From Lysobacterales bacterium (lineage in GTDB: Bacteria > Pseudomonadota > Gammaproteobacteria > Xanthomonadales > Rhodanobacteraceae), in assembly GCA_038233665.1 (NCBI GenBank), contig JBBSVJ010000001.1, positions 13,781-77,780 of the forward strand: a DNA stretch of 64,000 bases, written 5' to 3'. Shown here one piece after another: positions 2,757 to 49,969 of the stretch. Position 1 is the first letter of the stretch. Every line of letters starts with the position of its first letter. A program made the position numbers and the translations under genes. The notes under the pieces are model-generated. The model was not told the DNA's origin. It saw nothing but the letters and a program-made list of their open reading frames with translations, and searched no databases.

Positions 2757-3415
2757 TGCGCGCAGAATTCTGGTTGCAGCGCTGGCAGAAAGGCCAAATC
2801 GGATTTCACCGTGACGAGGTCATGCCGTTGTTGAAAACGCATTGGCCGATGCTGTCGCTAGCGCCAGGCAGTCGCGTATTTGTTCCGCTCGCCGGCAAAT
2901 CCAAGGACATGCTGTGGCTGGCCAGTCAAGGATTTCGCGTCCTCGGTGTCGAACTGTCGCCGCTTGCCATCGAGCAGTTTTTCGATGAGAACAATCTTGA
3001 GCCGGTGATCCATGTGTCAGCCCTTGGGCAGCACTTTGTTGCCGGTGATATCGAGCTGATTTGCGCTGATGTATTGATACTCGAAGCCGAGGATCTCTCC
3101 AGTTGCGTTGCGCTATACGATCGCGCCGCACTCATCGCACTGCCTGCGCACCTGCGTCGACGCTATGCGACCCACCTGACGCAAGTGTTGCCCGCGCAAT
3201 GCCAGATGTTGTTGATTACGGTGGACTACGCGCAACCCGTGATGGACGGCCCGCCATTTTCGGTTGATGCCGAGGAAGTGCGATCGCTATACGCGGATGA
3301 CTGGGAAATTACGGCGCTCGAGCGAGATGACATTCTGTCAAGCGAGCCCAGATTTATTGCGCGAGGCTTGAGGGATCTTCATACGACCGTATTTCGGCTT
3401 TGCCGAGCTGCTTGA
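2756..3415 (+). CDS. tpm: Thiopurine S-methyltransferase
   Basis: FWLQRWQKGQIGFH, RVFVPLAGKSKDM, GVELSPLAIEQFF, YDRAALIALP and GPPFSV. The ATG overlaps the haemoglobin stop (TGATG). Confidence 0.92.
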   Translation: MRAEFWLQRWQKGQIGFHRDEVMPLLKTHWPMLSLAPGSRVFVPLAGKSKDMLWLASQGFRVLGVELSPLAIEQFFDENNLEPVIHVSALGQHFVAGDIELICADVLILEAEDLSSCVALYDRAALIALPAHLRRRYATHLTQVLPAQCQMLLITVDYAQPVMDGPPFSVDAEEVRSLYADDWEITALERDDILSSEPRFIARGLRDLHTTVFRLCRAA

Positions 3416-3458
3416 TACGCCATGGCACAGCGCACCCGGCTGGGGTCAGGAAGATCAA

Positions 3459-5282
3459 TTGTCAGACCACATTGATGGGTCGTCAGGTCGGCCTGACTGT
3501 CTTGAAGGGCGCCGTGTCGGCTCACGAAGACTGACTCTTTTTGTTCATTCGCATAGAATGAACTTTGGATTTTTCTGGTTACCCCTCATGTCGATGCGCA
3601 ACGGGCTGGCGCTCTTGCTTGCCTTGCTGATGTTCGCCTATACCGCTATCAACGCGGCGTTTCTTCAATTGACCACTATTGAATGCTGGTTTGTTCTGAG
3701 CATGATGGCGGCAAGTGCGCTTGCATTGAGCCTGTTGACGCTGCGCCCGGCAACCTCAATTGCCTTGGTCGCAGCGCTTTTCATGGGCGTGCAATATGCT
3801 GCGGTGGCGAAGTACGAACAATTGCATGAGCCGTTGCTGATTACCGATTTCCTGTATTTTTCAAGCTTCGGAATTTTCGATACGTTACGTCAGTATCCTG
3901 ATATTTCCTTGGTCGGAAAATACGTCGTTCCCTCAGTTCTCCTTACATTCTGCCTACTCTACCTCGCCGATTATCGGCTGTGGCAGAGTCGATCAGTGCC
4001 AACCCGCAGGCTCTTGCAGATCGTTGGATTTGGGCTTTCAGCCTTGCTTGTCGTGGTACTTGATTCAAGTCGGGGTCCGTTTGTCGGTGTGATCCAGAAA
4101 GATCTGTGGAGTTCGCTCAGCGACGGTAGTCATCTGTCGAATTTTCTCGTATCAATTCCGAATTCCGGCGTCGAGTTGCCGACGTTCGCGGGGTCTGCGA
4201 ATGCTGCCGACTCGTGGACTGGGGCACCAAGCAGCGTGGTGGCTCCTGAACACAAGCCGGATATTTTCATGGTGCTGGAAGAAAGTACGTTCGATCCACG
4301 AACCATGGATTTGTGTAACAAACCGGTTTGCAATCTGCCGGAGTTCTTTGATCCCGACCAGCGTACGGTAGCCTCCGGATCGTTGCTTGTGCATACCTTT
4401 GGTGGAGCGACCTATACCAGCGAATTTGCCTCACTGACCGGCTTGCCGCACACGCTGTTCGGCGCGGCGGGTCGTTACGCGCCGTACAAGCTGGCGCCAC
4501 TGATGCAGCATACGTTGCCCGATCGGCTGCGCGAACTCGGCTATCGATCCGTTGCGATCTATCCGATCTACGGAGACTTTCTCAACGCGCGCAACGCTTA
4601 TATCAACTACGGTTTCGATGGTTTCCACGATGCCGTCGAGCTCGGTCTCGACTGGGGCAGTGACGATAGTGATGTATTTGCGGCGATGGATCGCGTGCTC
4701 GTTGAAGAGCGCAAATATGGCAAGCCACTGTTCGTCTCTGTCCTCACTCTCTATCAGCACGGCCCGCACAATCATCCTTTGTCTGCGCTCGAGCCGCCGT
4801 GGAGCGCCGGGCTCTTTCCGCAGGAGCCCGATGCGCTCAATACAGCAATGACCAATTATCTGTATCGCCTGCATCGCAGTGCCAAGGCGATGCGTGCGCT
4901 TGAACCGCGCCTGCTCGATCGTCCAGAGCCCACGGTGCTGCTGCATTTTGGTGATCATGAGCCGTCCTTCGATGGCTTGCTGATGCCTCTCCCGCGCGTA
5001 CGCGTCGAGAGCGGACCACCACAATGGTCACGGACCTACTATGTGATGAAATCCAATTTGAAAGCTGCCTCGCGCCTGATCGACGTACCCGTGCTCGATA
5101 TCGCTTTCCTGCCAGGCTTGCTGCTGCAAGCGGCCGACCTTCCGCCAGGGCCGTATTTCGATGCGCAGATAGCGTTACGCAATGCCTGCTCAGGTGTATT
5201 CACGGATTGCCCCAACCAAGCGTTGCTGGACCGTTACTACGATCATGTCTTCAATCACTTGGACGTGATGCGCTCGCATTGA
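3459..5282 (+). CDS. LTA synthase family / sulfatase-fold membrane phosphotransferase
   Basis: N-terminal TM helices, then PDIFMVLEEST, FGGATYTSEF (Thr nucleophile), HGPH and HFGDHEP. The true start is probably later, around 3557-3594. Confidence 0.8.
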   Translation: MSDHIDGSSGRPDCLEGRRVGSRRLTLFVHSHRMNFGFFWLPLMSMRNGLALLLALLMFAYTAINAAFLQLTTIECWFVLSMMAASALALSLLTLRPATSIALVAALFMGVQYAAVAKYEQLHEPLLITDFLYFSSFGIFDTLRQYPDISLVGKYVVPSVLLTFCLLYLADYRLWQSRSVPTRRLLQIVGFGLSALLVVVLDSSRGPFVGVIQKDLWSSLSDGSHLSNFLVSIPNSGVELPTFAGSANAADSWTGAPSSVVAPEHKPDIFMVLEESTFDPRTMDLCNKPVCNLPEFFDPDQRTVASGSLLVHTFGGATYTSEFASLTGLPHTLFGAAGRYAPYKLAPLMQHTLPDRLRELGYRSVAIYPIYGDFLNARNAYINYGFDGFHDAVELGLDWGSDDSDVFAAMDRVLVEERKYGKPLFVSVLTLYQHGPHNHPLSALEPPWSAGLFPQEPDALNTAMTNYLYRLHRSAKAMRALEPRLLDRPEPTVLLHFGDHEPSFDGLLMPLPRVRVESGPPQWSRTYYVMKSNLKAASRLIDVPVLDIAFLPGLLLQAADLPPGPYFDAQIALRNACSGVFTDCPNQALLDRYYDHVFNHLDVMRSH

Positions 5283-41775: not shown

Positions 41776-44223
41776 ATGACTGCAGGATCAAGAGTTGCCT
41801 TTGCCTTTCTCATCGTGTTGCTTAGCCTGAATGGGCACGCTGCTACCCGCCATGCTGGCGAGTGCATCGATGGTGTTGCCGAGGGTTATGCCTGCAGCCA
41901 TGTTGACCTGCTTGGCCATCTCGACCTGCTCCAACTCGGCACGACGGTCTCGGGCAATGGCAACGATATGTGGGGCTGGACCGATCCCGATTCCGGCAAG
42001 GAATATGCGCTGATCGGCCTCAACAACGGCACGGCTTTCGTTGATATTTCTGATCCGCAAAATCCCCTGCGCCTGGGCAACCTTCCAACCCACAGCGTCA
42101 ACTCACTCTGGCGTGACATCAAGACCTTTGGTCATTACGCGCTGATCGTTTCCGAAGCGCAGAACCACGGCATGCAGATTTTCGACCTGCACCATCTGCG
42201 TGATGTGATCACGCCGCCAATCACCTTTTCCGAGGATGCGTGGTATGGCAACTTCGGGCGTGCGCATGACATTGTCGTCAACGAGTCCTCCGGTTTCGTC
42301 TACGCAGTCGGATCGCGTCAGGGTACGCAACAGTGCAATGCAGGCCTGCACATGATCAACATGCAGAATCCGCTGGTTCCGGCATTTGTCGGATGTTTCA
42401 GCGCGGATGGCTACACCCATGATGCCCAGTGCATCAACTACGACGGCCCCGATGCCGATTATCTCGGCCATGAAGTCTGTTTCGCCGCAAACGAGGACAC
42501 GTTGACGATTGTCGATGTGAGCAACAAGGCAAGTCCGGTACAGATTTCACGCACCGGTTATAGCGGCTCCGGTTACGCGCACCAAGGCTGGCTCAGTGAC
42601 GATCGACGCTACATGCTGTTCGATGACGAGCTCGACGAACAGAACGACGGACACAACACGCGAACTTATGTCTGGGATGTGCAGGATCTCGACGCTCCTC
42701 ACGTCGATTTCACCTATGACGGCCCAACCAAAGCCATTGACCACAACCTCTATATCCATGAAGGCTACGCTTACGAATCGAATTACCAAGCCGGTTTGCG
42801 CATTCTCGATCTGTCCAAGATCGACAGTGACGTTTTGACTGAAGCTGCGTTTTTCGATACCCATCCGGAGAGTGACAGTGCCGATTTCGAAGGCGCATGG
42901 AGCAACTATCCGTTCTATGCGAGTGGTGTGGTCGGCGTCAGTGATATCAACCGCGGATTGTTTTTGTTGCAGCCTGAGTTGTGTCGAGCGCCGCTACCGG
43001 CAAGTGGCCTGAGCGCGGTTGGCAACGGCGACCATCGGATCGATCTCAGCTGGAGCCCGACGACAACGCCAGGCGCCAGCTACTCGATTGATCGGATTGT
43101 TGGCGGATGCAGCGGCAGCGCGGTCGAGACCATCACCAGCGGATTGAGTGGTACGAGTTTCAGCGATACCTCGGCCTCGGGAACGGTGACTTACGGCTAT
43201 CGTGTTCGCAGTGTGGCCGCATCGGGTGAATGCTCGGCGGCAGCCAGTGCTTGCGTCGAAGCAAGCACGACGGGAACCTGTACCGCAGCGCCGGCGTTCG
43301 ATGGGATTTTCAGCCTGCAGTCTGCCGCAACTTCATCGTGTGCTCTCGATCTGAGCTGGCAATCCGCGAGCTCGTATTGCGGTGCCGGTGCGAGCTTCAG
43401 CGTTTACCGATCGCAGGATGCGGGATTTACGCCGGCTCCGGCCGATCAGGTGAGTTCGTCGGTTTCCGGCCTTTCATGGACGGATACAGCGATCGCCGCC
43501 GGTGTCGACTACACCTATGTCGTTCGCGCTACCGATACCGGCAATGGCAGCATGGATGGCAACAGCGTGCGCTTGAGCGCTCGTGCGACGGGTCCGATCA
43601 GTGATGGTGATTATTTCAGCGGCGCGGAAACCGGAACGGCCATGCTTTCTGGCGTCGGAGAAACCCCGCTTGTGAGGCAACCGACGGCACCGGCGCACGT
43701 GGCTTGGGAAATTGTCGACAGCCAGGCGCACAGCGGAGCACGCAGCTATTTCTCCGGCTACAACAACTCTGAATGTCTGTCGATCGGGAGTGGGCCAATC
43801 TCGCTGAGCGCGGGACAAAACTCGATGATGGAATTCTGGACCCGCTACGGCATCGAAGCCGGTTACGACGGCGGCGTCGTGCAGATATCGAGCAATGGTG
43901 GACAGGATTGGTCGACGATTGCGCCGATTGGTGGCTATCCGGCGAGCTTCAACGGCAACAACACGAACGCCTGTGGTCTACCGACCAACAGCGGTAATTA
44001 TTCCGGCACCAACGCTGCGAACCTGGATTGGTCTGCACAGCAATTTGATCTATCCGCCTATGCCGGACAAACGATTCAGTTGCGCTGGCGCTTCAGCACC
44101 GATGGCGGAGTGACCGCAGACGGTTGGTGGATCGACGATATCCGTATCACCCACGCCCAAGTGCCCGGCATGTGCATGTCGAGCAATGATGTGATCTTTG
44201 TTGATGGATTCGAGATGTTGTGA
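41776..44223 (+). CDS. Choice-of-anchor B family secreted protein with FN3-like and C-terminal beta-sandwich domains
   Basis: Signal peptide, GNDMWGWTDPDSGKEYALIG, WRDIK, YTHDAQC, HQGW, HNLY and WSNYPFY. Ends in NDVIFVDGFEML. Confidence 0.85.
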   Translation: MTAGSRVAFAFLIVLLSLNGHAATRHAGECIDGVAEGYACSHVDLLGHLDLLQLGTTVSGNGNDMWGWTDPDSGKEYALIGLNNGTAFVDISDPQNPLRLGNLPTHSVNSLWRDIKTFGHYALIVSEAQNHGMQIFDLHHLRDVITPPITFSEDAWYGNFGRAHDIVVNESSGFVYAVGSRQGTQQCNAGLHMINMQNPLVPAFVGCFSADGYTHDAQCINYDGPDADYLGHEVCFAANEDTLTIVDVSNKASPVQISRTGYSGSGYAHQGWLSDDRRYMLFDDELDEQNDGHNTRTYVWDVQDLDAPHVDFTYDGPTKAIDHNLYIHEGYAYESNYQAGLRILDLSKIDSDVLTEAAFFDTHPESDSADFEGAWSNYPFYASGVVGVSDINRGLFLLQPELCRAPLPASGLSAVGNGDHRIDLSWSPTTTPGASYSIDRIVGGCSGSAVETITSGLSGTSFSDTSASGTVTYGYRVRSVAASGECSAAASACVEASTTGTCTAAPAFDGIFSLQSAATSSCALDLSWQSASSYCGAGASFSVYRSQDAGFTPAPADQVSSSVSGLSWTDTAIAAGVDYTYVVRATDTGNGSMDGNSVRLSARATGPISDGDYFSGAETGTAMLSGVGETPLVRQPTAPAHVAWEIVDSQAHSGARSYFSGYNNSECLSIGSGPISLSAGQNSMMEFWTRYGIEAGYDGGVVQISSNGGQDWSTIAPIGGYPASFNGNNTNACGLPTNSGNYSGTNAANLDWSAQQFDLSAYAGQTIQLRWRFSTDGGVTADGWWIDDIRITHAQVPGMCMSSNDVIFVDGFEML

Positions 44224-44288
44224 GATCGATCGCGGTCGACAAGCTTGGCTGAGGTTTGGTTTGATGCGGAGCAAGTTCATGGCGACGC

Positions 44289-44532
44289 GTGCAATTGCAA
44301 TTGCACTTGCGATTGAGGGGTCGATGCGATCGTTCGCAACGCCTTAATTTGATCCTGCATTTAGGGTCGATGCGATCCTTAGCAACGCCTGCAATTTGCT
44401 TTTGCAATTGAGGGGTCGATGCGATCCTCCGCAACACCTGAATTTGCTCCTGCAATTCAGGTGTACTTGCCATCCATGGCAATCGCCTGAAACTGCTCCT
44501 GCTTTTCAGGCATACATGCCATCCATGGCAAT
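44289..44532 (-). ncRNA. Candidate CsrB/RsmY/RsmZ-like GGA-loop small RNA (tandem hairpin array)
   Basis: Five 46-49 nt units, each with two hairpins. 7 loops carry GGA and the stems show compensatory changes. RNA function is inferred. Confidence 0.6.
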
Positions 44533-44560
44533 AAAAAACCCCGGGTGTTTCCACCCGGGG
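44533..44560 (-). terminator. Rho-independent terminator of cspA
   Basis: Minus strand: CCCCGGGTG-GAAA-CACCCGGGG followed by TTTTTT. Confidence 0.9.
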
Positions 44561-44585
44561 TCTTGGTCAAACAATGGCGCGAGGT

Positions 44586-44795
44586 TCAGGCAACCTGAAC
44601 TTCGTCAGCCTGCATGCCCTTCTGACCCTGCACGGCGACAAACGTCACGCGCTGGCCTTCCTGCAGTGACTTGAAGCCGCTGCCCTGGATCGAGCGAAAA
44701 TGCACGAACAGGTCGGGGCCGCTTTCCGGCGTGATGAAGCCGAAGCCTTTGGCATCGTTGAACCACTTGACGGTACCGTTTTGGCGATTGGACAT
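44586..44795 (-). CDS. cspA: Cold-shock protein
   Basis: [15 protein letters not shown] (RNP1) and LFVHF (RNP2), with an AGGAG SD. Confidence 0.97.
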
Positions 44796-45186
44796 ATCTA
44801 ACTCCTAACAACTCAAATGAAATGGTATTCACGCTCCCGGGAACTCCCTGGGGACGAGACTGAGGTTGCTAAGGAGCGCGCAATCGGAACGATGGAATCG
44901 TGAAATTCGACGACATCGGGCCACGATTCACAGTGACCCTGGCAAACACAGTTCGCGTACTGTACAGAGGATTGTTCTACAAAGCGACTGGGCTCGGTGA
45001 AAATTCCATGATGCCAGCTTGCAATGGCTCAAGCTTTGTGCGCGTCGCGCCACTGGTTGGTGAAAAAACGTTTTCATAACAAAGGCTTGCGTGTTCGAAT
45101 CCTCTAATGATCGTTTTGGAGCTGATCCAGCTGAGTGCGTCTGCTGTTATGAATAGCCAGATGACGCGCCGAGGAAGTCCTGATTT

Positions 45187-46515
45187 TCACGTTTCAAGGC
45201 TGCCTCTCGCGAAGTCTCTGCTTGTCAGCAGCTGCCGCAGGGCGACGTAGCTAGCTGCCATCGGCGCGGCTGATGCCGGACGCGAGAGCAATCTGGCGAG
45301 CGCCTCGGGAGGCTCGATCTGACGACCGATCAGCGGCTCTACGATCTGCTCGAACTTGGCGGGATGCGCGGTCGCGACTATTGCCCAGTGGCCGGCGACA
45401 CCTTGGCGGCGGAGATGTTCGAGAACGCTCGCGGCGCATGCGCTGTGCGGACAAAGCACCTCGCCATAGGCAAATGCCGCTGATCTGATTGTTGCTCGAA
45501 TGGAGTCGTCTTCAACGGCGTCCACCGTGAATGCCGTGCGTAGCAAAGGCGCATCCGGATAGAGCCAGCACAAGCGTTCGAAATTGCTCGGTGCGCCGAC
45601 ATCCATCGCGTTGGCCAGGGTCGCCACGCTCTCTTCTGGCACATAGTCAGCGCCGGCAAAGAATTTGGGTAACGCGCGATTGGCATTGGTAGCGAGGGCG
45701 ATCTCACCGATCGGCAAGCCGCAAGCGCGGGCCAGAATAGCGGCCATCGCATTGCCGAGATTACCCGTTGGAATAACGAAATTCAGACACTCCCCGGTGC
45801 CACGCCAATGTGCCAAAGCGGCGCATGCGTAGTACGACATCTGCGGCATCAAGCGGCCGAGACTGATGCTGTTCGCAGAACTCAAAGGGATCTGCGCTTG
45901 TAACTCGCGATCGGCCAATGCTTTCTTGACCAGACGCTGGCAATCATCGAATGAGCCGGCAACCCGAAGCGTGGTGATGTTGTCGCCGAAGCAGCCAAGT
46001 TGATGAGCCTGACGCGGTGACACGCGTCCATCCGGATACAGCACGACCACGCGCAAGTTGGCCAGTCCATGAAAGGCGGCGGCGACTGCAGCACCGGTAT
46101 CCCCCGAGGTCGCTACAAGTATCGTCAGCGTCGCTTGCTCGGGTGTGCGAAGGCGCTGCATGCACTGGGCCAGAAAACGCGCGCCGAAATCCTTGAATGC
46201 AGCCGTCGGGCCATGGAACAACTCGAGGATGCTGGTTTGATCGAGGCCAAGCGGTTTCAGCGGCGCCGGGAAATCCAACGCCTCGGTACAGATCGCTGGG
46301 AGTTCGCTGGCCAATGGATCGTCGGCAAAGAAAGGCTGCAGCAGTCGTGAGGCAATGCCGGCGATGGATTCCAGCCCATCAAAGTCATCGGTTGAAAACT
46401 GAGGCAACCGTTGCGGAACATACAAGCCGCCATCGGTGGCCAATCCGGCGAGCAGCGCGCTACTCAAGTTGACGCCATCGGCGGCGTTGCGATCGCGCGT
46501 GCTGACGTATTTCAT
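45187..46515 (-). CDS. thrC: Threonine synthase
   Basis: [14 protein letters not shown] (PLP Lys), ATSGDTG, NSISLGR and PTGNLGN. Confidence 0.96.
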
Positions 46516-47432
46516 GCCAGCACCGCAGCGGCCGGCCCATTGATCGGTGATAGAAACGCGCTGCAGTTGAAGCCAGCCTGTTCAAACGCGGCGCACATCG
46601 ATGGTGCGGCAATCTCGGCCTGTGCGCGGTTCTCGAACCAGGCAAACACGCTCGGCCCGGCGCCCGATATGGATGCGCCCATGGCATCGTGTTCCAGCGC
46701 GGCATCCTTGACCGCATGGAAGCCGCGGATCAACGGCGCACGGCGTGGCTCGACCAGCACGTCGGCAAGGCCCGCACGAACAAGGTGGGTATCACCGCGA
46801 TGGCAGCCGCTGAGAACGAGTGCGAGATTGGTGCTTTGCTCGACAAATTCTGCAAGCGCATAAGTGCCGTGCAAGGCGTCGCGCGACTGCCGCGTTTCAA
46901 GTACGACGTCGGGATGCACAATGACGCTAAACCATTCGTTTGGCACCTCGATTCGCAGCAGGTGTCCGTGGGCGGCCAGCACGAGACCGCCGAGCAGCAT
47001 CGGCCCGACGTTGTCGCCGTGTCGGCTGCCACTCGATACCGCCTCGCCATCGAGGGCAAAAGGATAAAGTTGTTCCGGCGCGAGCGGCCGATCCAACAAG
47101 GCATTCGCGGCGACCAAGGCCGCGACACACGAAGCCGCGGAGCCACCCATGCCCGAACCCAGGGCGATGCCCTTGTCGAGTTCAATGGCAAAGCCGAACG
47201 GAAGGTTCAGCGCTTCGCGCATGGCGATCAAGCCACGGCCCGCGGTGTTGTGCATAGCATCGGTCGGCAGATTGCGCACGCAACCTCTGATCGCGTCGAT
47301 ACGCACATCAAGCTCGTCGGTGCGCCGCACCGTGGCGCGATCGCCAATACCGGCAATGCTCTGACCCAGAATGTCGAAACCGACTGCAACATTGCCAATG
47401 CTGGCCGGGGCGAAGGCGGTTACCGAACTCAC
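46512..47432 (-). CDS. thrB: Homoserine kinase
   Basis: [28 protein letters not shown] and ISGAGPS. Confidence 0.96.
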
Positions 47433-49969
47433 AAGCGTGCTCCGAGTGCCGAACCAAGACGCAACAGGTCGGCGAAGATTCCGGCTGCCGTGACCTCGCG
47501 TCCTGCGCCCGGCCCCTGAACGATCAACGGGTTTTCAGCGTATCGATGCGTTGTGAACTGAACGCTGTTGTCGGTCAGGCGCAGATTGGCAAACGCATGC
47601 GTATCCGGCAATTCAACCAGGCCGACGCTGGCCTTGCCTTCGCCGTCGAGGCGAGCGACATAGCGCAGTACACAATTTCTTGACTGCGCCGCTTCGAGTT
47701 TTTCAGCCATCGCGCTGTCGAGTGAATCGAGTGCTGCGATGGCGGCGTCCTTGTCCAGCGCAAGCAACTCCGGCGGCACCAGGCCTTGTACGTCAACATC
47801 GCTCAGTTCAATGGATTGACCCGCCTCTCGCGCAAGAATTACCAGCTTTCGCGCCACGTCGAGGCCAGACAAATCATCGCGTGGATCCGGCTCGGTATAG
47901 CCCAGTTTGAGCGCTTCGCGAACCAGCGCGGAAAACGGTTGACTGCCATCGAAGCGATTGAACAACCACGCCAGGGTGCCCGAGAGGATTCCCTCGATCA
48001 CCCGCAACGAATCGCCCGTGTCTATCAAATCGCGCAGGGTCGAGATCACCGGTAAACCGGCACCAACGGTCGCCTCATAACGCCAGCGCCCACCGCCCGA
48101 GAGGCGCGCATCGCGAATCGCCTGCCAACGCGCGAGTGGGCCGGAGCCGGCCTGTTTGTTCGGCGTAATCACATGAATGCCTGCGCCAAGCCAGGCCGGA
48201 TAATGCGAAGCGACGTCATCGCTGGCACTGCAGTCGATGATGACGGCATGCGGCAAATGAGCGGCATGGACGTGATCGGTGAATCGGCTTAAATCCGACA
48301 ACAGTTCACTTGATGCGAGCTGTGTCGACCAATCGGCGGAAAGATCGCCACGTTCGCTGATCAACAGCTTGCGGCTTGAGGTGATCGCACGAACGCGCAA
48401 GTCGAGATTGGCTTCGCGGCGAAGCCGCGGAATCGCTTCGCGCAACTGATCGAGCAAGGCGCGACCAACATTGCCGGGGCCGATCACGCCTACTGACAAG
48501 GTCTGTGGCGACAGCCAAAATCCGGCGTGCGCCGCACGCAGGGCGCGCGCGGCATCGGCACTGGCCAGTGCGACCGAGATGTTGCGTTCCGAGGCACCCT
48601 GGGCAATCGCGCGGATGTTGACCTGGGCGCGGCCCAAGGTGGCAAACAGACGTGCTGCGACGCCGGGCGATCCAGCCATGCCATCACCCACCGCGGCGAG
48701 CACGCTGATGTCGCGCGTGACCGTGATCGCCTGAATCTGGCCCGAGCTCAGTTCGCGTCCGAACACGGCATCCAGAGCGACCTCGGCACGCGCACAATCG
48801 GCGCCTCGAACGACCAGGCAGATCGAATGTTCCGACGAGCCCTGGGAAATCATCACCACGGACACTTTCGCATCGCGTAGAGCCGCGAACACGCGTTCGG
48901 CGGTGCCGGGAACACCGATCATGCCGGCGCCTTCGACATTGATGATGGCCAACTGATCGGCCAGTGAAAGGCCGCGCACGGGACCCTCGCCCGATTCACC
49001 CCGGCGTGAGATACACGTTCCGGGATGCGACGGCTTGAACGTATTGCGGATATGGATAGGCAGTCCGAGCGCCATGGCCGGCAACATCGTCTGCGGATGA
49101 ATTACCTTGGCGCCGAAGTAGGCGAGTTCACAGGCTTCCTCGTAGGACAAGGCACCCAGCGAAATGGCTTCCGGAACGAGACGTGGATCGGCTGAAAGCA
49201 CGCCATCGACATCGGTCCAGATATGCAGCTCGCAGGCATCGAACAATGCCGCAAAAATCGCTGCCGAAAAATCACTGCCGTTGCGACCCAGCGTCGTTGG
49301 CCTGCCGTCGCCATTACCGGCGACAAAGCCGGTAATGATGATCCGGCGTTGCGGATGACGGCTGCGCCACTCTGCGAGTCGCGCGGCGCTGACCTGCCAA
49401 TCCACCGCGACACCGAGCTCAACGTGACTGACAACCAGAATCTCGCGCGCATCGAGTAGAGCGCAATCTTCCCCCAGTGATTCGATATGCGCACGCAACA
49501 ACGTGGCCGCCCAGACTTCGCCCAGACCCTGGATGGCATCGAGTGCCTCGCGCGCGGGAATGCCGAGGATGGCCAGCGCCTTGAGCTGATCGGCGAGATC
49601 CGCGCAGCGAGCTTCCAGCCAAACTCGAACCGCGCCCGAAGACTCGCCAAGCAAGTCAACTGCGGTCTGCAAATGGCGCTCGCGCAATTCGCTCCATTGC
49701 GTCTGCCAAGCTGGATCTTTGCAGGCGGCCAAGTGGCTGATCGAAATCAGCTGGTTGGTCACCCCTTGCATGGCCGAAACCACGGTGATCTGGGTGAGAT
49801 CGTCGCAGTCAAGAAGAATCGAGGAAACCCGCCGAAAGCAGTCCGCATTGGCTAGCGAAGAGCCACCGAACTTGTGCGCAACGACCGGTTGAGAGCTGCG
49901 CTCAGAAGGCTTGGCAATGTTGTGACGCGTAGCAGCAAGCGTGGCTGACAATGTTGCAAACGGGCTCAT
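47429..49969 (-). CDS. thrA: Bifunctional aspartate kinase/homoserine dehydrogenase
   Basis: [14 protein letters not shown] and WTDVDG, two ACT domains, then [20 protein letters not shown] and [12 protein letters not shown]. Confidence 0.96.

Follow-up and report, generated by a model that had tools for sequence, protein, structure and literature searches.

This analysis concerns a tandem array on the minus strand, at positions 44289-44532, of a 64,000-nucleotide stretch of Lysobacterales bacterium contig JBBSVJ010000001.1 (hereafter the window). The array consists of five units of about 49 nt and lies between cspA, which encodes a 69-residue cold-shock protein and is located upstream of it, and a convergent gene for an 828-residue protein with LVIVD repeats and an InhA-like MAM domain, which bounds the far side of the intergenic region (Table 1). 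In an original prediction made from the sequence, the array behind cspA was proposed to be a sponge RNA for CsrA/RsmA built by tandem duplication, with an RNA from a 3′ untranslated region (UTR) in Xanthomonas, RsmU, as a parallel. The unit is, however, a dispersed multi-copy repeat that is not specific to cspA, and the array is not a stand-alone small RNA (sRNA) gene; it is probably a local cluster of a family resembling the repetitive extragenic palindromes (REPs), whose loops would serve a trans-acting partner.

Organization of the array

The units start at 44532, 44483, 44435, 44386 and 44340, and the sequence reads as originally described. The register is confirmed by Tandem Repeats Finder and by a separate repeat search. 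The former reports a period of 48-49 over 44296-44502, with 4.0-4.3 copies at 76-78% matches; units 1 and 2 on their own (44437-44532) reach 85% matches. The proposed growth of the array by tandem repetition is borne out. The 244 nt of the minus strand contain eight GGA triplets and no TCC, compared with 4.8 and 2.8 expected from the composition, and both CATGGATG loops that had been pointed out are present. Within the window the repeat unit is found at this single place, and the exact 25-nt sequence of hairpin B occurs once, against zero occurrences in shuffled sequences.

Each unit had been described as a pair of hairpins, A and B, with GGA in seven of the loops. This description holds for units 1 and 2, both by folding and by a covariance model of the family (R1), whereas units 3-5 are decayed. 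All four GGA triplets of units 1 and 2 lie in tetraloops (UGGA, AGGA) of the minimum free energy (MFE) structure. The hairpin B loop of unit 3 reads AAAA and its GGA has therefore been lost, while in unit 5 the place of hairpin B is taken by a TGCAAT hexamer repeated 4.3 times at 44290-44315; over units 3-5 the covariance model returns only a partial match of 6.7 bits, located in unit 4. Two units are therefore intact, and the three behind them are decaying. The plus strand of units 1 and 2 folds at −20.0 and −24.3 kcal/mol, which is as stable as the minus strand or more so, and for the array as a whole the values are −109.5 kcal/mol for the plus and −92.5 kcal/mol for the minus strand.

On its cspA side the array abuts the strong intrinsic terminator of that gene, the stem of which aligns to the terminator helix of the Rfam cspA model and which is also present in three array-free loci (L002, L004 and L010; loci fetched for comparison are given L numbers throughout). 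Unit 1 starts at the base next to the T6 run, so that the array lies beyond the terminator and outside the cspA 3′ UTR, and no room is left for a promoter. Consensus scans found no sigma-70-like promoter on either strand of 44100-45000 and no GacA/UvrY-type box (TGTAAG-N6-CTTACA) with up to three mismatches near the array, and no minus-strand terminator was found 3′ of it. Over the array Rfam gives no match, either at the gathering score or at E values up to 10. At the opposite end the array sits 66 nt past the stop codon of the LVIVD/MAM gene, with a plus-strand terminator-like site at 44233-44251 in between; this gene is syntenic in L002, L004-L008 and L010. No csrA gene is present in the 64-kb window or in the fetched loci.

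Table 1. Features of the array and of its two flanks, with positions given in the window
Feature	Position	Strand	Evidence and remarks
cspA coding sequence	44586..44795	-	Open reading frame (ORF); Pfam CSD, E 6e-28
cspA intrinsic terminator	44533..44560	-	Inverted repeat and terminator scan; stem CCCCGGGTG / CACCCGGGG at 44539-44560, loop GAAA; T6 at 44533-44538
Unit 1, intact	44484..44532	-	Covariance model R1, 59.4 bits, E 1e-21; MFE -18.6 kcal/mol, z -2.6; both GGA in tetraloops
Unit 1 hairpin A, TGCCA-UGGA-UGGCA	44517-44530	-	
Unit 1 hairpin B, CCUGAAA..GC-AGGA-GC..UUUCAGG	44486-44510	-	
Unit 2, intact	44434..44483	-	Covariance model R1, 66.6 bits, E 2e-24; MFE -23.2 kcal/mol, z -5.1; inverted repeat
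Unit 2 hairpin A	44467-44482	-	
Unit 2 hairpin B	44434-44464	-	
Unit 3, partly decayed	44387..44435	-	Hairpin A UGCGG-AGGA-UCGCA with a G-U pair; fold marginal, z -0.6; not recovered by the covariance model
Unit 4, decayed	44341..44386	-	GGA triplets kept, stems broken; MFE structure not of the two-hairpin form, z 0.07
Unit 5, decayed	44289..44340	-	Hairpin A only, with ACGA loop; hairpin B replaced by a microrepeat
LVIVD/MAM gene, 828 residues	41737..44223	+	Pfam PF20773 2.8e-17 and PF08309 6.6e-09; convergent with cspA

A dispersed repeat family

A scan with the exact pattern CCATGGAYGG-N8-CC-N6-GCAGGASS, restricted to one genome per species, returned at least 119 genome stretches from many gammaproteobacterial orders, often several per genome. 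Among the matches listed, to which all taxonomic statements here refer, nearly all records carry a gammaproteobacterial label, and they cover the Lysobacterales, Aeromonadales, Oceanospirillales-type genera, Alteromonadales, Cellvibrionales, Chromatiales and Acidiferrobacterales. Carriers within the Lysobacterales are Dokdonella, Rudaea, Dyella, Arenimonas, Stenotrophomonas and others, and elsewhere the unit occurs in Oceanisphaera, Oceanimonas, Zobellella, Marinobacterium, Nitrincola, Saccharospirillum, Halomonas, Endozoicomonas, Marinimicrobium, Cellvibrionaceae, Shewanella, Rheinheimera, Corallincola, Chromatiales, Acidiferrobacterales and Sedimenticola. Two records fall outside the Gammaproteobacteria, one a Nitrosomonadales and the other a Bathyarchaeota metagenome-assembled genome. 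Carriers with complete genomes include Dyella sp. KULCS107 (NZ_CP192735.1), Marinobacterium (OY782520.1) and Cellvibrionaceae (OZ245996.1), and among the cultured ones are Stenotrophomonas sp. MYb238, Dyella, Zobellella denitrificans ZD1 and Endozoicomonas ascidiicola. Several loci may come from one genome, as with JADJHN01 (L006, L040 and L095) and MKWR01 (L041, L077 and L119), and covariance model R1 adds further copies in the fetched loci, some 8-kb loci having up to six, in both orientations and with inverted pairs.

Depth in metagenomes gives an indication of copy number in the source community. When contigs of three DNA metagenomes that contain this organism were compared with the first two units, the depth of the unit core relative to the unique flank was 199/3.95, ~1070/24.8 and ~350/6.6, a 43-53-fold excess, which together with the single place in the 64-kb window fits tens of sites per genome, not hundreds. 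Loose ends in the metagenomes join the unit to at least three further terminator hairpins. Rfam has no entry for the family: searches of 18 related loci gave no family besides tRNAs, and a search with an element of the second subclass described below gave nothing relevant. Plasmid and viral collections contained no copies of the unit, and literature searches with the sequence strings and for a link between REPs and CsrA yielded nothing relevant among the top-ranked matches.

Across the family the unit of about 49 nt is composed of hairpin A, CC-A-NGGA-U-GG, and hairpin B, in which a stem of 7-9 bp is capped by GC-AGGA-GC and which carries a head of the GTAT, GTAG or AGTG type. Most units of the first subclass, including those in the window, have GTAT as the head, which is AGTG or AATG in the second subclass and GTAG in L027 and in a nested GGTAGAGCAAC subfamily.

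Genomic contexts of the unit

Two main contexts can be distinguished. In subclass I, to which the array in the window belongs, an intrinsic terminator always precedes the first unit, which shares its orientation and begins immediately behind the T-run; the junction usually reads TTTTAT-NG-CCATGG. A sense terminator whose T-run ends no more than 18 nt from the first unit was flagged at 34 sites, two of which (L056 and L096) were judged false positives, leaving about 32. An antisense terminator abuts the far end at only three sites, and a sense terminator follows within 75 nt downstream at only 3 of 137 family sites. Upstream of subclass I units there are genes of various sorts, for the most part of highly expressed types, including cspA, five TonB-dependent receptors, rplS, rpmJ, glnA, gltA and Lpp-like and phasin-like genes. 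According to a gene caller trained on codon usage, which recovers the true neighbours in the window, the gene upstream is co-directional with the unit in 22 of 26 cases; where both neighbours were called, the context is convergent in 11 of 22 cases and a co-directional gene follows downstream in seven. In arrays of several units the terminator-proximal unit scores best in 20 of 24 cases (Spearman −0.58), a trend that is biased by the definition of the sites and is suggestive only.

Units of subclass II have the form GACCG-CCATGGATGGCGG-RARTGCC-stem-GCAGGAGCA-stem and occur singly within long, lineage-specific inverted flanks. They show no orientation bias towards genes: between co-directional genes 13 are sense and 17 antisense, and a further 17 sites are divergent and 14 convergent. 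In L107 (1715-1900), L025, L028, L124, L105 and L059 such units were observed at the apex of lineage-specific inverted repeats of 25-40 bp. A box of the type CCCTGTAGGCTCGG upstream of these units contains a GTAG and the hairpin A loop in inverted form, and the layout is REPIN/BIME-like.

Two further arrangements were also seen. A second type of unit with a GGTAG head (CUGCA-GGGA-UGCAG followed by GGTAGAGCAAC-GCAGGAGC-AGTTGCC) is nested in the loop of hairpin B, right after GCAGGA, at L006 3290-3354, L009 3296-3358 and L119 ~2590-2700, and adds more GGA motifs; the nesting suggests insertion of one element into the loop of another. In L099, L109, L112, L114, L033, L037 and L081, a unit without a terminator follows a conserved junction ending in ...GCGCCCAGGTTATTG and is itself followed by GGTCATGG/GGTCATCG, and this third context may represent the end of a larger repeated element.

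Conservation of the stems and loops

The covariation of the stems that had been noticed within the array is backed by the family at large. In an alignment of 131 real matches, 129 of them distinct, 91.4% of the cells are paired, and changes on both sides of a stem number 289 compared with 74 in shuffles; the covariation score is 0.381 versus 0.113 in shuffles and at most 0.10 in slid registers. A preference for the minus strand had been deduced from a G-U pair, and this part of the original prediction holds only to a limited degree: on the GGA strand G-U combinations outnumber A-C modestly, 64 to 44, but the plus strand folds as well or better.

The loops are conserved as well. A hidden Markov model with masked loops recovered 32 copies outside the scan pattern, and the counts were taken from these. 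GGA is kept in 26 of 28 recognizable A loops and in 29 of 31 B loops, in agreement with the expectation that homologous arrays would retain it, while in hairpin A the base that precedes it, the N of CANGGAUG, can be U, G, A or C. The two GGA triplets of a unit are spaced about 25 nt apart. The recognition rules of CsrA/RsmE comprise an ANGGAN loop, the consensus RUACARGGAUGU from in vitro selection (SELEX) and the CsrB repeat CAGGA(U/A/C)G (PMC7652899). Hairpin A presents CAUGGAUG in a short stem and fits both the ANGGAN loop and the SELEX consensus, and hairpin B carries CAGGAG, which is close to the CsrB repeat. Judged by sequence, the conserved loops look exactly like CsrA/RsmA binding sites.

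The array in close relatives

An identical 69-residue CspA is encoded in ten syntenic thrA-thrB-thrC-cspA loci (L001-L010), and the state of the array differs widely among them. Three of these loci (L002, L004 and L010) have no units at all; L006 and L008 contain one unit plus an insertion, L009 two units, and L007 two units plus remnants, while in L001 and L003 the units are broken up by other DNA. In L005 a run of N at 3371-3470 lies inside the array, where the repeat has broken the assembly; in the sister contig L007 just two units stand at that place. Copy numbers from zero to many beside an identical CspA indicate that the array is dispensable and highly variable among very close relatives. 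The first unit, where present, retains CAUGGA(U/C)G and GCAGGA, and the stems of hairpin A differ between the loci by compensatory changes (TGCCA/TGGCA, GGCCA/TGGCC and GACCA/TGGTC). No insertion boundaries could be defined against the three empty sites because of the strong divergence of the intergenic DNA. The interrupted array in L001 includes four tandem copies of a repeat of about 17 nt, GGCCCACATCAACAGTT, which lie at 3411-3480 between two of its units.

A transposase-like gene was found next to the units in two of these loci. In L001 (3728-4317) and L003 a frameshifted pseudogene of the Y1 (HUH) type with the motif YAVMSNHVHVVLH is located about 100 nt from a unit, between the array and an IS3-family transposase. 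Its score is 25 bits with PF01797 (Y1_Tnp) and 33 bits with the NCBIfam model REP_Tyr_transpos, the cut-off of which is 80. A tblastn search with this gene against all fetched loci matched only L001 and L003. Relatives with 39-99% identity are encoded at 80 metagenome loci, of which only the L001 contig itself carries units and the other 79 have none. As its relatives are not flanked by units, the gene is not a demonstrable cognate enzyme of the family, and it was rejected as a candidate for the REP-associated tyrosine transposase (RAYT) that would mobilize the units.

Comparison with known repeats and regulatory RNAs

Several hallmarks of REPs are found in the family: the unit is an extragenic, short and imperfect palindrome with compensatory stem changes, it is dispersed in many copies per genome, and it is reiterated in tandem with a copy number that varies between close relatives. 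In Stenotrophomonas maltophilia, SMAG/REP elements (GTAGTGCCGGCCGCTGGCCGGCA) occur as singles and as pairs; they are also reiterated head-to-tail, flanking DNA included, in units of about 50 bp whose number varies between strains (PMC2613905, PMC2817692). The likeness to these elements, which come from the same bacterial order, extends to a small extragenic palindrome with TGCCGG...CCGGC(A), preceded in some units by a GTAG-type head, and to tandem units of about 50 bp; there is also a resemblance between the SMAG REP and hairpin B taken together with its head (GGAAGTGCCGG.. or GGTATGCCGG..). Unlike in SMAG, however, the adjoining DNA is here a conserved second hairpin, the cap GC-AGGA-GC is invariant, and the heads are mostly GTAT, AGTG or AATG; moreover, the core is conserved across orders and is not species-specific, one subclass is strictly terminator-adjacent, and no cognate RAYT was found.

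With the REPIN/RAYT system and the hairpin miniature inverted-repeat transposable elements of the IS200/IS605 type the family shares short non-autonomous hairpins, compensatory stems, an apparent strand- and orientation-specific insertion next to a short target and, in L001, the presence of a Y1-like gene. It differs from REPIN/RAYT in that the units are direct tandem repeats in this lineage, not inverted doublets, and in that the Y1 relatives lack flanking units. A parallel for the targeting of terminators is provided by bacterial class C group II introns, which insert right downstream of intrinsic terminator stem-loops in the orientation of the terminator. The analogy is confined to this targeting, as the unit has 49 nt, no ribozyme domains or reverse transcriptase and no match to an Rfam intron.

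The likeness to CsrB, CsrC, RsmX, RsmY and RsmZ consists in several GGA hairpin-loop sites per molecule that fit the CsrA/RsmE determinants. In contrast to these sRNAs, the array has no Rfam match and no promoter, activating box or terminator of its own, it does not occupy a single conserved locus, and it belongs to a dispersed repeat that is found in either orientation to genes. To our knowledge, no canonical Csr/Rsm sRNAs have been described in the Lysobacterales. RsmA itself is present in the order and is known from Xanthomonas (PMC7694677). RsmU (sRX061) of Xanthomonas campestris is encoded in the 3′ UTR of comEA (XC1332), 25 bp past the stop codon, as a single-copy 77-nt fragment with a longer isoform (PMC7694677), and is thus a GGA-bearing, RsmA-binding RNA from the 3′ region of an mRNA in a member of the Lysobacterales. 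The parallel to RsmU drawn in the original prediction goes no further than this, as RsmU originates from a different locus and the present array is multi-copy and lies beyond the cspA terminator.

Nature of the array

We consider the reading of the array as a local cluster of a REP-like, SMAG-like repeat family, with loops that serve a trans-acting partner, to be the best supported, with a probability of roughly 0.6. Under such a model, units would arrive or be added beside a terminator through a strand-specific DNA process that targets the hairpin or the T-tract, for which an HUH/RAYT-type single-strand transposase acting in trans appears to be the leading candidate. Slippage or unequal recombination would then lengthen and shorten the array while its distal units decay, as units 3-5 seem to have done, and the invariant GGA loops and covarying stems would be what the trans-acting partner of the family recognizes. 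Any RNA from the array would come from read-through of the cspA terminator and would have stable 3′ hairpins displaying CsrA/RsmA-type sites, as a by-product or in a secondary use; binding of such read-through RNA by CsrA/RsmA is possible.

Several observations weigh against the REP-like reading. No cognate transposase was found, the sole Y1/RAYT-like gene beside a unit being the frameshifted pseudogene in L001 and L003, and no plasmid or viral copies account for the spread between orders. The core hardly differs from one order to another, in contrast to the lineage-specific classical REPs. The best-conserved positions are the loops and not the GTAG head, and these fit the CsrA/RsmE consensus precisely, with variation at N only. 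Finally, compensatory stem changes distinguish the copies that one genome carries at separate loci, and these hint at a lasting constraint and not at neutral relics.

An alternative is a role in RNA, which we regard as possible but considerably less probable than the REP-like reading. The family could be a mobile two-hairpin element with optimal CsrA/RsmA loops that has been amplified after the terminators of highly expressed genes, in which case read-through 3′ extensions from leaky terminators would titrate RsmA as a distributed Csr/Rsm antagonist or recruit RsmA in cis as a module, or the element would exploit CsrA for the stability of its own RNA. Each unit would offer two predicted high-affinity GGA hairpins at a distance sufficient for one CsrA dimer, and the role would be played in lineages such as the Lysobacterales, from which canonical Csr/Rsm sRNAs are not known to us. 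The fit of both loops to the CsrA consensus, the retention of GGA while the N position is free and a core that is invariant across orders, as is CsrA, would all be accounted for, as would the sense orientation of all subclass I sites to the terminator, the highly expressed types of the upstream genes and the fact that G-U slightly outnumbers A-C on the GGA strand. Such a role is, however, difficult to reconcile with the lack of orientation bias to transcription in subclass II, with the low RNA yield expected after strong terminators, with the decay permitted to distal units and the dispensability of the array in close relatives, and with a plus strand that folds as stably as the minus strand. 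Metatranscriptome contigs over cspA of close relatives have high depth and stop in the terminator region, and in three RNA runs the array has a depth of zero, although this is a weak indication, as it comes only from contigs of relatives, which may lack the array, and as repeats break contigs.

A dedicated RsmA sponge sRNA at cspA, derived from its 3′ UTR and expanded by tandem duplication as originally envisaged, would explain seven GGA loops behind a very highly expressed gene and has a precedent in RsmU, but we consider it unlikely. The array follows the terminator instead of preceding it, lacks a promoter-like site, a GacA box and a terminator of its own, has only two intact units and matches none of the CsrB, RsmY and RsmZ models or other Csr/Rsm families of Rfam at gathering or permissive thresholds. 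The expected conservation behind cspA is likewise not seen, as the array is missing from three of the ten syntenic loci and ranges in the rest from one unit to an array that breaks the assembly. The unit is present at many unrelated loci, in keeping with the at least 119 genome stretches and the 43-53-fold depth, and such dispersal counts against a sponge by the original prediction's own standard. The array should not be annotated as an Rsm sponge gene.

It is also rather improbable that the repeat is a terminator accessory beneficial to the host, which would act as a back-up barrier, shield the 3′ end of the cspA mRNA against exonucleases or keep read-through from passing between cspA and the convergent LVIVD/MAM gene, the GGA motifs being incidental. 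The strict placement directly after terminators and the convergent context of half of the assessed subclass I sites (11 of 22) speak for such a function, and REP elements stabilize upstream mRNA. A role of REPs in aiding Rho-dependent termination has been reported in work cited in PMC2817692. This explanation nevertheless leaves the invariant loop sequences and the two-hairpin unit unaccounted for, the terminators concerned are already strong, and subclass II units lie in promoter regions in either orientation. The least probable of the explanations, and in our view a very improbable one, places the function on the plus strand, where UCCU/UCCA loops resembling anti-Shine-Dalgarno sequences would form in the 3′ region of the LVIVD/MAM transcript. 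The array does lie close behind the stop codon of that gene, and folding of the plus strand is no less stable than that of the minus strand; yet the orientation of subclass I follows the upstream terminator, a co-directional gene is found downstream at 7 of 22 sites, the G-U excess favours the GGA strand, and the terminator-like site at the end of the LVIVD/MAM gene precedes the array.

If the array is taken as a REP-like repeat, the family is unusual among such repeats in three respects: the two-hairpin core is nearly invariant across orders, the loops coincide with the CsrA/RsmE recognition code with the N position free, and one subclass starts right after the terminator T-run and seems to decay away from the terminator. 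Should the loops be read by CsrA, selfish repeats would be linked to global post-transcriptional control, which could help to explain RsmA antagonism in the Lysobacterales. Should they be read by a transposase, the family would be a clear example of a miniature element that targets terminators and inserts in one orientation. A practical consequence is that the family breaks assemblies, as evidenced by the N-gap in L005.

Other features of the window

The region of cspA gives a partial match to the Rfam cspA thermoregulator (RF01766) at 44533-44900 on the minus strand, with 57.3 bits compared to a gathering score of 78 and an E value of 9e-14. The match spans the cspA coding region and the terminator, its 5′ end being cut by the limit of the stretch searched. 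Upstream of cspA, ORFs of 846, 306 and 442 residues at 45187-49969 on the minus strand fit the thrA-thrB-thrC order of the syntenic loci; the 442-residue ORF, the sole one of the three checked against Pfam, is a threonine synthase. A tandem repeat of 14-15 nt, TGCCGCAAAAATCAC, is present in 2.3 copies at 49247-49280, within the putative thrA region.

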